Position numbers and translations under genes: made by a program
The notes under the pieces: model-generated
Database searches by the model: none
What the model saw: only the letters and a program-made list of their open reading frames with translations
Told to the model about the DNA's origin: nothing
Source: Octopus vulgaris
Taxonomy: Eukaryota
Length of the DNA stretch: 64,000 nt
Assembly: GCA_951406725.2 (NCBI GenBank)
Contig: OX597829.1
Span: forward strand, 23,684,001-23,748,000
Direction of reading: 5' to 3'
Shown here: in pieces, positions 4,725 to 62,847 of the stretch
Layout: the number at the start of each line of letters is the position of its first letter
How positions within the stretch are numbered: the stretch's first letter is position 1

Positions 4725-5009
4725 CGACAGCTGATGATTGGGGATTTTCCTTGTGTAGCTTGTCCTGTACTTTGTTTTTCTGTTGTAAAAAAATGGCTTT
4801 TCCGTTTTCGTTTCTGTTGAGTTCTACGTCTTTTTGTGGTGTCCTGTACTTACGTATATATATTTATATATGCATGTATATATACATGTAGATGTAGGTA
4901 CGTACATATATATATATATATATAACCATCTTTCTTTCCTTCCCTGAGCATCTGCTAATACTTTACATGTATCACATGCTCGCGTTGTTGTTTTTTTTGT
5001 TTGTTGTTC

Positions 5010-23663: not shown

Positions 23664-23724
<61 letters not shown>

Positions 23725-23727
<3 letters not shown>

Positions 23728-23935
23728 ATCCAAACATGAAAACACAAGGAGAAAACACAACAACGCGAGGAACAAGTATAGTGTTATTGGACGCTCAGGA
23801 AAGGAAAGAAAGAAGGAGGATTTAACGTTTCGATTTAACGTTTCAAGCTCTTCGTCAGAAACATAGAAAAAGGAAAGGTCCAAGGAAGGGAAGACGGAGG
23901 GAAAAATCGCCAACGATACACACACGGCCACATAT
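23725..23935 (-). mobile_element. TA-embedded Penelope-like terminal fragment (family P1) with a damaged hammerhead at 23821-23863
   Basis: Minus strand GTTT-CTGACGA-AGAGCTT-GAAACGTT-AAAT; homologous to 62409-62630 and 4925-5005. Confidence 0.65.
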
Positions 23936-34417: not shown

Positions 34418-34504
<87 letters not shown>

Positions 34505-34506
<2 letters not shown>

Positions 34507-34715
34507 TTTTATGAAAGCTGCAAAATTATCACAAAACTGTTACTCAAAGTTTCACGTTCTCGTTAATCGGGAACGTGACGAACGGGAACGTGAAATTCTG
34601 AGAAACAGTTCTGTGAAAATTTTGCAGCTTTAATAAAAGCATATTCCTCTATCTTTGGTATTCGAGTACTCAAGTACTATTTTTTTTCCACCTTGTTTTG
34701 CATTTATGTGCTTAC
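34505..34715 (+). mobile_element. TA-embedded fold-back element (family P2), aged copy with degenerate hammerhead arms
   Basis: Inverted arms 34506-34565 / 34577-34639; TGACGAACGGGAACGTGAAA; homologous to 43862-44083 in the opposite orientation. Confidence 0.75.
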
Positions 34716-37062: not shown

Positions 37063-38010
37063 ATTGATTGATTGATTGATTGATTGATTCTAGTTTCAGC
37101 TCATGAGCTGTGGCCATGCTGGGGCACCGCCATTTGGTGTTGCTACATGGTTTTACTTCACGAAAACTTTTTAGCAACTGCCATTTGGTGCATGAGAGAG
37201 TTCGATGCAGCTGCCCTCATCTGCACCTCCTGCCGTGAAGTTGGTTCATCTGGGACACCCGACAGGAAGAGATCCAGTTTCATTTTAAAGACATCTGCAT
37301 CCACCCCATGCAGGTCTCTCAGGTTCTTCGGGAGGATATTGAAGAGCTGTGGGCCTCGGAAGCCCAGGCTATCACAGTATCTTGTCCTACATCTTGATGG
37401 CAAATTTGGAGTCCTAGGCACCACGCAGTGGCGCCCAGTTCTGGCATTTGTGTAACTCTCGATGCCAAAGTTTGGGACACGTCCCTCCAGGATCTTCCAG
37501 ATGTATATTATGGCATATCTTTCCCGCCTACGCTCCAAGGAATATAGTTTTAATCTCTTGCGTCTTTCCCAGTAGCTTACATTCTGCATAGAGGCTATCT
37601 TCTTCGTGTAGCTACGCTGGATCGCCTCGAGCTCTGTGATCAACTTGACACTGGATGGTGACCATAACTGAGAGCAATAGTCAAAGTGGCTTAGGACAAG
37701 TGTCCTCCAGAGGACCATCATGGTTTCTTGTTCTCTTGTTCTAAAGGTTCTGAGAATCCATCCGGCCAGTCGTCTACATTTCATTGCCAATTTAGCAACA
37801 TGTACACGAAAGGTTGCGTCATCACTCATGTAAATACCCAGATCACGCACTGATTGTGCCTCTGGGATTGCTATTCCTCCGGGTCCAGTGTATTCATTGG
37901 GTATTGCATTTAGTTTTGCATGCTGATAGTATAAAGCTTGAAACTTTTCAGCATTGAACTGCATGCTATTCTTTTCAGCCCACTTGTATATTTTGTCCAG
38001 CTCATTGCTG
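37063..38010 (-). mobile_element. CR1/L2-clade LINE, 5'-truncated, with an uninterrupted ORF2 C-terminus (37158-38018)
   Basis: LDKIYKWAEKNSMQFNAEKF, VRDLGIYM, DYCSQLWSP, LEAIQRSYTKKI, LKLYSLERRRERY; (AATC)n tail. Confidence 0.93.
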
Positions 38011-39190
38011 CAATGCAAACTATATTCTCACGTAGCTGCATTTAATAATCGTTCTAACAAAGACAGGAGTTACAGTTTAGCTGTTCAGCGTGAATTTTTC
38101 TCCTGCCGTGGCAGCTTATTAACTAGAGTCTATATAACAAAGTATTTTGTAATAACTACAGAATTGCCCTTCCCAGTGTGTAAACTTAGTTTTTTTTTTT
38201 TTTTTTATTCAAGACCAACATTTAAAATATTTTGTGCTGTGAATAAAGTTCTGTTAATTGTTCATGAGTGTTAGGCCTCATTATATGCAGCCAAAACCTG
38301 ACTTAACCACCTGCATTTCATATCTTTCATTCTGTGACCTACGTGATAATATTTAACATCATACTTTCGTGAACCTTCTTTCGAATCTCAAATCACGTGC
38401 TTTATATATCAGATAACGCAGCCCTTGTAGATAGCCTCGAAATTAATCCCAGATGTTCTTGCAACCAGCTTTTCGGTGATGTTGCCACCGTTTCAGACCT
38501 ATTTCTAGTTTTCCAATCACTTCTTTTACTCCCCAACCTTAATCACTAGTGTACTTAATAGATAATAACCACTTCTTATTTGTTCATAACTGACCCCGTT
38601 ATGTTCCTTCTAACTAGATTTGTGCTCTGGTACAGGAAAGCATCCCGAATCTGAATGAAAACGTCACAGTTCTAGTATTTGGAACCTTGCCTAAAAATCT
38701 TATTCTATTATTGTCGGTCACAAAATTGTGAAACTTACTATTATCTAGGTGACTGCTTCGAGGAACAACTTCTGGAAGTTCGGAACCATACCCAAACACT
38801 CCCTCTAGACCTGTAACCCGACATTTCAATCGCCTCTTCCTCTTTAGAGAGTCATCTTATCGCACCCCGAACTTCAGCCGTTAACACAGGGAGAAAAAAA
38901 GATGCCTAGTGTATGCATTTTTTTCTCGTACGTATTAAAGCAGTGGTTCTTGACCCCACCCCACTTTTTTTTGTAGCGCCCCATTTTTAAGGAATTATTA
39001 TGCCTAGTGGCCCCACCCTTTGAGTAATTGTTATGCCTAGCATACACATAGTTATGCCTAGTGAGGTATTTGGACGAAACTAACTTAACATGGATGATGA
39101 TTTATAAATTTTTCTCTCTAAGTGGATTGTATAAGCTCATATTTTCTCTGGTTTAATCGGAAAATCAACTGCAACACACACGCACACACA

Positions 39191-43195: not shown

Positions 43196-43861
43196 GTGAA
43201 GACCTCCTCTAATCATTCTACCTATGTAAAATTATTTATTTATGTATGTATCTGAAAGATGAAACAATGACTGCGTCTTTCTCATTTTGTAGAATATACC
43301 GGTACTACGAAACGGTGTATCGCATTGCATATTTTAGCCATAATACCTAGAAAAAAACATACAAAGACCCCATAAAGGTATTGTTTGTGTTTTAATATAC
43401 CAAGGTAAGTAAGACAAGATAGTAAGATAATTACCCATTATCGTTAAGATTGTAACGAGGAATATTAGAAAATTAGCCAAAACACCTCGGAAAACGATAC
43501 AGGGACCACATCAAAGTTACAGATTGAGCATGTGTGCTTATGATGGCGTGTTACTAAATTATCTGGTCCGAGATTGTGTGAGCGAGCGTCGTGTCAATTG
43601 CTGGTGTGCGTTTACGTCCCCGTAACTTAGCGGTTCGGCAAAAGAGACCGGTAGAATAAGTACTAGGCTTATAAAGAATAAGTCAAGAGGTCGATTTGCT
43701 CGACTAAAGGCGGTGCTCCAGCATGGCCGCAGTCAAATGACTGAAACAAGTAAAACAATAAAACAATAAAAGAGTAAAAGAGTATGTATGTATGTATGTA
43801 TGTATGTATGTATGTATGTATGTATGTATGTATGTGTGTGTATATATATATATATATATAT

Positions 43862-44082
43862 ACCGGAGTAAACATATAAATGTGAAACAAGGTGGAAAAA
43901 GAGTACTCAAATACCAGTGGTAGAGTAATATGCTTTATTTAAAGCAGCAGAAAATTCAACAAAACCTGTTACTCTGAGTTTCACGTTCCCGTTCGTCGGA
44001 CAGTAGCAAAAACAGTCCGACGAACGGGAACGTGAAACTCAGAGTAACAGGTTTTGTTGAATTTTCTGCTGCTTTAAATAAA

Positions 44083-44083
<1 letters not shown>
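43862..44083 (-). mobile_element. TA-embedded fold-back element (family P2): perfect 69-bp inverted arms, 13-nt spacer
   Basis: Arms 43933-44001 and 44015-44083; (TA)n on both sides. Confidence 0.85.
43966..44003 (-). ncRNA. Minimal type I hammerhead ribozyme motif (U4>C)
   Basis: CTGT-CCGACGA-ACG(GGAA)CGT-GAAA-CTC(A)GAG-TA-ACAG; all three stems pair; mirror copy on + at 44013-44050. Confidence 0.7.
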
Positions 44084-44148
<65 letters not shown>

Positions 44149-44263
44149 TTATAATCAAGGACAAAATCTAAAAGGTCATTTTATCAAGTTGCTTGTATGT
44201 AAAAGACCATTTAGGTAAAAAAAAAATCAATAAAAAGTATTTAATTTTATAAACGTAGTTATA

Positions 44264-44401
44264 AGGGCAACTATTGGGTAGCGCCACATGCTACAAGACA
44301 CCAAATGGTTGTAAAACTATCTTATTTATCATATGATAAATAAGGTAGTTTTAGAGCCATTTGGCGTCTTCATGCACGTAGCACTACTCAGGAGTTGCCC
44401 T
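44264..44401. repeat. Aged spacer-less palindrome (69-bp arms)
   Basis: Centre CAT|ATG at 44332/44333; AGGGCAACT...AGTTGCCCT ends. Confidence 0.85.
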
Positions 44402-44450
44402 AATTATAATTATAATTATATATTATATATTATATAATTATAATTATATA

Positions 44451-44840
44451 GGCGCAGGAGTGGCTGTGTGGTAAGTAGCTTGTTTACCAACCACATGGTT
44501 CCGGGTTCAGTCCCACTGCGTGGCATGTTGGGCAAGTGTCTTCTGCTATAGCCCCGGGCCGACCAAAGCCTTGTGAGTGGATTTGGTAGACGGAAACTGA
44601 AAGAAGCCTGTCGTATATATGTATATATATATATGTGTGTGTGTGTGTGTGGGGGGGGTTATGTGTCTGTGTTTGTCCCCCTAGCATTGCTTGACAACCG
44701 ATGCTGGTGTGTTTACGTCCCCGTCACTTAGCGGTTCGGCAAAAGAGACCGATAGAATAAGAGACCGATTTGATCAACTAAAGGCGGTGCTCCAGCATGG
44801 CCGCAGTCAAATGACTGAAACAAGTAAAAGAGTAAAGAGT
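44451..44840 (+). mobile_element. SINE A with an internal deletion
   Basis: GGCGCAGGAGTGGCTGTGTGG head; family A tail. Confidence 0.9.
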
Positions 44841-62395: not shown

Positions 62396-62516
62396 TATAT
62401 ATATAAAGTTAATCCAAACATGAAAACACAGAGAGAAGACACCAGAACGTGAGGACGTGGAACAAGTATAGTATTATTGGACGCTCAAGAAAGAAGGAAA
62501 GAAGGAAAGAAGGAGG

Positions 62517-62551
62517 GTTTAACGTTTCGAGCGGAGCTCTTCGTCGGAAAC
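62517..62551 (-). ncRNA. Minimal type I hammerhead motif (U4>C) in family P1 element 62409-62630
   Basis: GTTT-CCGACGA-A-GAGC(TCC)GCTC-GAAACGTT-AAAC; palindromic ACGT stem III. Confidence 0.65.
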
Positions 62552-62847
62552 ATAGGAAAAGGAAAAATCCAAAGGAGGGAAGACGGAGGGAAGACGGAGG
62601 GAAAAAAATCGCCAACGGTACACACGCGGTCTTCGTTTTGAGATTTGGTTTGCAAGATTCTTTATATGAGTTCATGTGTTGAAGCATATTCAGTTGTGTC
62701 TGGGGAGAGTCATCTTCTTTTTGTGCCTTATAATGTAACAGACTCACCGGTAAAATTTCCACTTATTTCTTATTTTCATTTTCCTAAAATTTTCGTTGTG
62801 TCTTGCAACCTTTTCAATAGTCTTGACTCTGTCCGTTATGTGTGGGT

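Follow-up and report, generated by a model that had tools for sequence, protein, structure and literature searches.

The window, by which we mean the whole 64-kb stretch of DNA that was analysed, is repeat-rich, animal-like DNA, and between two of its microsatellites lies a perfect inverted repeat. The arms of this hairpin, at 43933-44001 and 44015-44083, are identical at 69 of 69 bases, exactly as the original prediction had it, and are separated by a 13-nt spacer (44002-44014). Shuffling the bases of this 221-nt stretch 200 times never gave an exact inverted repeat longer than 12, so the arms are not a product of chance; the fold of the hairpin has z-scores of -21.7 and -22.7 (one per strand), at about -132 kcal/mol each. 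The extent first given to the hairpin, 43862-44083, holds for the arms (43933-44083) and not for the rest: 43863-43932 is a 70-nt single-copy tail that lies outside the hairpin on one side only, and 43862 is the final A of a TA run, the element itself starting at 43863. TA runs border both ends of the element. The left flank (43781-43862), which we read as the insertion target, is a (GTAT)n then (TA)n microsatellite inside which any TSD would be hidden, and the right flank (44084-44146) is a (TA)n microsatellite.

Both arms represent the same 3' segment, one with the tail and one without. The tail (minus strand) is the long 3' end of the element and contains a TTGAGYACT motif and a sequence predicted to form a small stem-loop. 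Arm 1 (minus strand) is a sense copy of the element's 3' end; arm 2 (plus strand) is the inverted sense copy, and it stops at a short, tail-less 3' end that lies 37 nt past the predicted cleavage site, as compared with 107 nt for the long end. The spacer is the head-to-head junction of two 5'-truncated copies, and within it lie the last stem I bases of arm 1 and, for arm 2, the outer part of the stem I 5' strand. An AATAAA hexamer (43933-43940) immediately precedes the short end, with no poly(A) after it. Among the neighbouring sequences are an imperfect inverted repeat just downstream (44230-44435; 103-nt arms, 72% complementary, no spacer) and, on both sides of the locus, copies of abundant SINE-like repeats (43606-43762 and 44450-44836), which we presume to be similar to known octopus genome repeats.

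Each strand of the hairpin carries a hammerhead motif, as had been claimed from the sequence. CCGACGA cores start at 44017 (plus strand) and 43999 (minus strand), and each is followed by stem II (ACG-GGAA-CGT), GAAA, the stem III sequence CTC-A-GAG and a GUA site. Arm 1 thus has its core at 43999-43993, with the C4 base at 43998, stem II at 43992-43983, the centre of stem III at 43975 and predicted cleavage after 43970, and the core of arm 2 occupies 44017-44023. Compared with the type I consensus (C3-U4-G5-A6-N7-G8-A9, G12-A13-A14-A15.1 and U16.1-H17), all positions match except U4, which is C here. The further claim, of a complete fold on each strand, does not hold: the identical arms include no more than 2 nt of the 5' side of stem I, the remainder lying in the spacer and differing between the strands. 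On the minus strand stem I has 4 bp and the helix then stops; on the plus strand it consists of 2 bp, an A·A mismatch at pair 3, 1 bp, an A·G mismatch and then 8 pairs including a G·U. Stem II has 3 bp. The very short stem III is palindromic (ACUC-A-GAGU), as in the dimer-type hammerheads of Penelope-like elements (PLEs), and would form only as a dimer, with a predicted duplex energy of -7.4 kcal/mol, in support of the dimeric folding proposed earlier from the 1-nt loop. Searches of Rfam returned no hammerhead family at the gathering score or at E<=10, giving only generic hairpin matches below the gathering score, and the predicted minimum fold of a single arm is, for either arm, not a hammerhead.

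The head-to-head joining of the two copies places the antisense arm 5' of the ribozyme whichever strand is read. The predicted pair probability of stem II is about 1e-18 on both strands, in the full hairpin as well as at nascent lengths that just complete the ribozyme. In this model the copy at 43863-44083 is masked: read-through RNA would zip into the 69-bp duplex before the ribozyme could fold, and no cutting would occur. As a prediction, then, self-masking by the antisense arm stands, although not as a special design, since the arrangement matches the known inverted 5'-truncated copy of PLEs, the tail-less end is minor in the family and the centres of the hairpins differ. Masking follows from the head-to-head geometry with no need for selection and is probably a by-product.

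A second, older copy, at 34501-34715 (minus strand), has the same hairpin build, short end and tail, with a different centre. It is 73% identical overall to the element at 43863-44083, and its short end also abuts a TA run. Its arms are identical to each other at 54 of 63 bases and to those of the younger copy at 48-51 of 63, and both of its cores are incomplete or damaged; variants of the AATAAA hexamer recur in it. The four arms of the two copies all end at the hammerhead core or slightly short of it, and a profile made from the two copies matched nothing in the 64-kb window apart from these arms. A reading frame beginning at the core was considered and rejected, as it is not kept in the older copy.

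The wider family was examined in public sequencing runs, and the stretch, in whole or in part, occurs in 21 of the 24 runs listed (10 studies, four organism codes). When contigs were aligned to a single arm with tail and spacer (43863-44014; likeness 80, variant share 3%), four of the 24 runs, from three organism codes, yielded 11721, 5005, 1869 and 530 aligned contigs. Summed depth reached 3.4 million in run X1, whose long contigs show depths of 34-55; summed depth is not copy number, as overlapping short contigs are counted many times, and we infer from these values a family of very high copy, thousands at least. The letter at 43932 that marks a tail-less end abutting TA made up 12.7%, 14.6%, 12.6% and 4.6% of depth in the four runs, shares that may be underestimated in that contigs with TA runs are possibly under-counted, and the short end stood beside TA in 77, 42, 15 and 3 contigs. 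Opposite-strand joints occurred at several places in all four runs (at least 8 among the best 15 of 23 joint rows), with the caveat that joints at a likeness of 80 are less reliable. The hairpin is therefore a minority form of its family, and its centres are variable. The best-supported opposite-strand joint, 43943/44004 (7, 2, 0 and 1 contigs), is, taken with the letters that bridge it, a lead to what may be another kind of hairpin, with its strand switch at stem I itself and one core left in the loop; single-core hairpins of this type, with no antisense core, would, if real, not be masked.

Beyond 44004 the loose ends of contigs start with T-runs and G, after which their agreement is poor (0.47-0.52), and they show the stem I of the family to be longer than either arm retains. 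We rejected the fall in depth towards 44004 as proof of truncation at the ribozyme, in that depth falls at the other edge too. An editing-like excess was not seen in run X14, where A>G at 43909 was 2.8% as compared with 2.7-5.2% in the other runs and no T>C place was listed; that comparison pools contigs from mostly non-hairpin copies and so carries little weight, and the assignment of X14 as RNA is a guess. Pattern scans of prokaryote genomes and viruses gave 0 matches, and a metagenome scan gave 3, which were GC-rich (57-69%), bacterial-looking and without flanking stems and were taken as chance.

These contigs also bear on the proposal that the C4 core is a natural variant, which a CTGA consensus would have contradicted. 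No such consensus was found: in the four runs, no letter other than C reached 3% of depth at 43998, nor did any alternative letter do so elsewhere in 43976-44004, and summed depth in the bin 43995-44000 was 645,000, 533,000, 36,000 and 12,000. Because common variants were reported at other places (e.g., 28-40% at 43965), a major U4 subfamily would have shown. Contigs drop rare variants and summed depth favours the consensus path; moreover, the site is 6 bases from the point at which the reference departs from the family, and the alignment covers only subfamilies at least 80% alike. C4 is the family majority; what can safely be stated is that, among close copies, there is no major U4 subfamily. 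We rejected as independent support the CCGA that the older window copy carries in its short arm, in that a 10-nt junction duplication could supply its CCG.

Within 43965-44004, the only places variable at 3% or more are 43975, the unpaired centre of stem III (4%, 20%, 18% and 18% in the four runs, and the sole variable place in 43966-44004), and 43965, a mismatch in stem I. The fold leaves some 8 of the 40 places unconstrained, and the chance of both variable places falling there is near 0.04, which lends weak support to selection on the hammerhead fold; the region as a whole is not less variable, having 2 variable places in its 40 nt as compared with 5 substitutions and 1 indel over the other 102 nt. 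The mismatch at 43965, stem I pair 5, is purine-purine and is kept in most copies as G or A, the pairing base making up 1-5% of depth. This mismatch could form a tertiary contact with the GGAA tetraloop of loop II (43986-43989).

The C4 core had also been linked to a second hammerhead-bearing repeat family in the window, P1, which is unrelated, ends at TA runs and has a minimal GAAA-CG-UU stem III. The parallel holds for one of its two cores: the copy at 62404-62631 (minus strand; core at 62547) reads CCGACGA, and the copy at 23722-23929 (minus strand; core at 23858) reads CTGACGA, with U4 and a short duplication in stem II. A P1 fragment lies at 4926-5002 (plus strand). The copy at 62.5 kb continues about 200 nt upstream, into what may be the decayed end of a reading frame, and Pfam searches of this upstream sequence gave no match, GIY-YIG included. 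Elsewhere in the window, 37158-38027 (minus strand) is an open stretch of 289 codons; it had no match in Pfam, and we take it to resemble the C-terminal region of a LINE reverse transcriptase.

What could have produced the hairpin? We consider it likely that it is a PLE insertion, consisting of two hammerhead-bearing 3' ends joined head to head in a TA microsatellite, and the element probably belongs to the Hydra clade, both assignments being drawn from its RNA motif, its ends and its target. According to Craig et al. 2021 (PMC8557442), PLEs commonly have a 5'-truncated copy inverted at their 5' end, carry a tail of 30-40 bp on one end and favour microsatellites; both window copies have the inverted, 5'-truncated, head-to-head copy and the one-ended tail, although this tail is longer than described. 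Insertion into (TA)n, together with a hammerhead near the 3' end whose stem III has the 4+1+4 form, is as in the Hydra clade, (TA)n targets not being unique to it.

The course of such an insertion can be envisaged from what is known of other PLEs. The endonuclease of the element would nick (TA)n; reverse transcription would begin at the long end, copy the tail and pass through an uncut hammerhead; synthesis would halt just beyond the core; a second, inverted copy would arise, through fold-back self-priming or with the other target strand serving as primer at the short end; and the centre would be trimmed during repair. Head-to-head junctions with palindromes have been described in PLEs and read as self-priming (Arkhipova et al. 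2013, PMC3846280). According to Frangieh et al. 2024 (PMC11167929), two start sites of reverse transcription bracket the PLE tail, both target strands are nicked in AT-rich DNA, uncut RNA serves as template and ribozyme cleavage is dispensable in vitro. This mechanism fits the locus because the 3' ends lie at 37 and 107 nt, both copies pass through an uncut ribozyme and the 5' ends are joined.

The closest known sequences are the hammerheads and 3' ends of Hydra-clade PLEs (Hydra-2_Amil, Hydra-2_Ajap, Penelope-3_HM and Penelope-13_HM; PMC8557442 Files S1, S2 and S7), with which the element shares a type I fold near the 3' end, a stem III of the form ACUC-N-GAGU with one unpaired centre base, a GUA site and a (TA)n target. 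There, the 4+1+4 palindromic stem III occurs in 17 of the 26 Hydra-clade rows of File S2, ACTC-N-GAGT in 5 of the 26, and (TA)n targets are listed for 26 of 27 Hydra families. In Penelope-13_HM, a 5'-truncated copy in inverted orientation puts the same hammerhead on both strands, and Hydra-2_aMil also has the stem I sequences ctgt/acag and the GUA site seen here. The distance from the cleavage site to the long end, 107 nt here, is about 97 nt in Hydra-2_Amil (counted from the supplement of PMC8557442). By eye, TTGAGCACT lies about 64 nt after the cleavage site of Hydra-2_Amil and TTGAGTACT at about 60 here, and the TTGAGYACT motif of the tail also occurs near the 3' end of that element. Differences are the CCGA core, as against CTGA in 34 of 34 File S2 rows, whose descriptor required CTGA; the 3-bp stem II with its GGAA loop; the tail of 70 nt rather than the 30-40 nt described in PMC8557442; and an extreme truncation that leaves nothing but the hammerhead and its 3' flank. 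The element is not of the Hydra-1_Obim family, whose core and stems differ.

Other known hammerheads share some of these features. For metazoan PLE hammerheads, Cervera and De la Pena 2014 (PMC4209133) report that activity is low and that a U3-A8 variant, dimer-type motifs and pairs on opposite strands occur; C4 was not found in the portions of that article examined. The short palindromic stem III that requires a partner is common to the dimer-type motifs (PMC4209133; Lunse et al. 2017, as reviewed in PMC6765202), which, as here, occur mostly as solitary truncated copies; in Schistosoma the opposite-strand pairs lie 100-700 bp apart rather than adjacent. Relative to the dimer-type motifs in these sources, the present one has the C4 core, A10.1-U11.1 rather than G10.1-C11.1 and no extra base after A9. 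Viroid and viroid-like U4C hammerheads also have CCGA for CUGA and are reported to cut. A viroid U4C variant had reduced activity in vitro that was sufficient in vivo (Ambros and Flores 1998, as cited in PMC3088659), and CCGA cores occur in zeta and betaviroid-like RNAs, with cleavage of both strands of ZV1 (10.64898/2026.09.16.752053). The latter are type III hammerheads of RNA circles without a DNA form, unlike the type I dimer-type motif of a genomic repeat, with C4 in the majority, seen here. Counting against the activity of C4, a mutational scan gave low activity for changes in the CUGA turn (PMC9901934). The literature searched contained no report of C4 as the consensus of an animal PLE family, a report that the survey of Lunse et al. 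2017 could contain, and C4 may be a known substitution in a new setting. In the parent element the motif would act as a dimer through ACUC-N-GAGU at a rate probably lowered by C4, and we consider measurable cutting somewhat more likely than not.

Several points speak against the Penelope reading: the tail has 70 nt and not the 30-40 nt described; stem II, which has only 3 bp, opens with A-U where G-C is usual; variability is no lower in the hammerhead region than in the rest; neither arm alone has a hammerhead as its predicted minimum fold; no reverse transcriptase (RT) or GIY-YIG frame is linked to the family; and the junction of the locus was not recovered in the four runs. At neither window copy (43863-44083 or 34501-34715) was an RT or GIY-YIG frame found, and the pattern scans found no relative.

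The hairpin might instead be mobile as a unit of fixed form, a MITE-like or retrozyme-like non-autonomous element designed with one ribozyme on each polarity. Both window copies are indeed hairpins with the same outer ends, with all four arms stopping at or just before the core, and viroid-like circles do carry mutually paired ribozymes on both polarities (10.64898/2026.09.16.752053). A fixed unit is nevertheless improbable, given that the centres of the two copies differ, that the older arms resemble one another (54/63) more than they do the younger copy (48-51/63), that the tail-less end accounts for about 13%, 15% and 13% of depth at 43932 in the three large runs and not about half, and that joints lie at many different places. 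The element also differs from non-LTR retrozymes, which are head-to-tail tandem units with a type I hammerhead (10.64898/2026.07.22.740005), in being head to head and dispersed.

Less probable still is a locus selected by the host as a self-masking ribozyme or source of hairpin RNA, feeding Dicer or ADAR and silencing the family. Either strand would give the perfect 69-bp duplex, and rotifer Penelope copies do give small RNAs (PMC3846280), but wherever substitutions vary in the family the copy has the most frequent letter, so that recent insertion explains the identity of its arms, the arms of the older hairpin have drifted to 86% identity, and no promoter or host gene was identified. That the palindrome is a fold-back artefact of sequencing or assembly, as its 100% identical arms, its position between microsatellites and the failure to recover its junction from four public runs (depth 0, 0, 1.5 and 0 at 44013-44014) might suggest, is the least credible reading of all, because arm 2 has stem I bases that are missing in arm 1 and differs from it at one overlapping base, because it ends at the short end of the family, found beside TA in 77, 42, 15 and 3 contigs, and because the diverged copy at 34501-34715 has the same build.

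Under the Penelope reading, the hairpin itself is ordinary retroelement debris, and the family-wide C4 matters modestly. Since surveys of PLE hammerheads used CUGANGA descriptors, CCGA families would have been missed and counts would be too low. More tentatively, and with the odds in our judgement against it, a recently active and very abundant PLE family may have fixed a C4 core; this core would retain dimeric cleavage and escape both Rfam and searches for CUGANGA, the same step may have been taken by another, unrelated family of this genome, and the hammerhead's own stem I may be the fold-back primer of inverted copies, as the recurrent strand-switch joints at stem I would suggest. The formation of inverted copies during Penelope transposition is named as unresolved in PMC8557442. 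Thousands of copies provide a natural data set for mapping the sites at which inverted copies form, and if stem I does act as a fold-back primer, it would be a testable cause of the unexplained head-to-head structures of Penelope elements.
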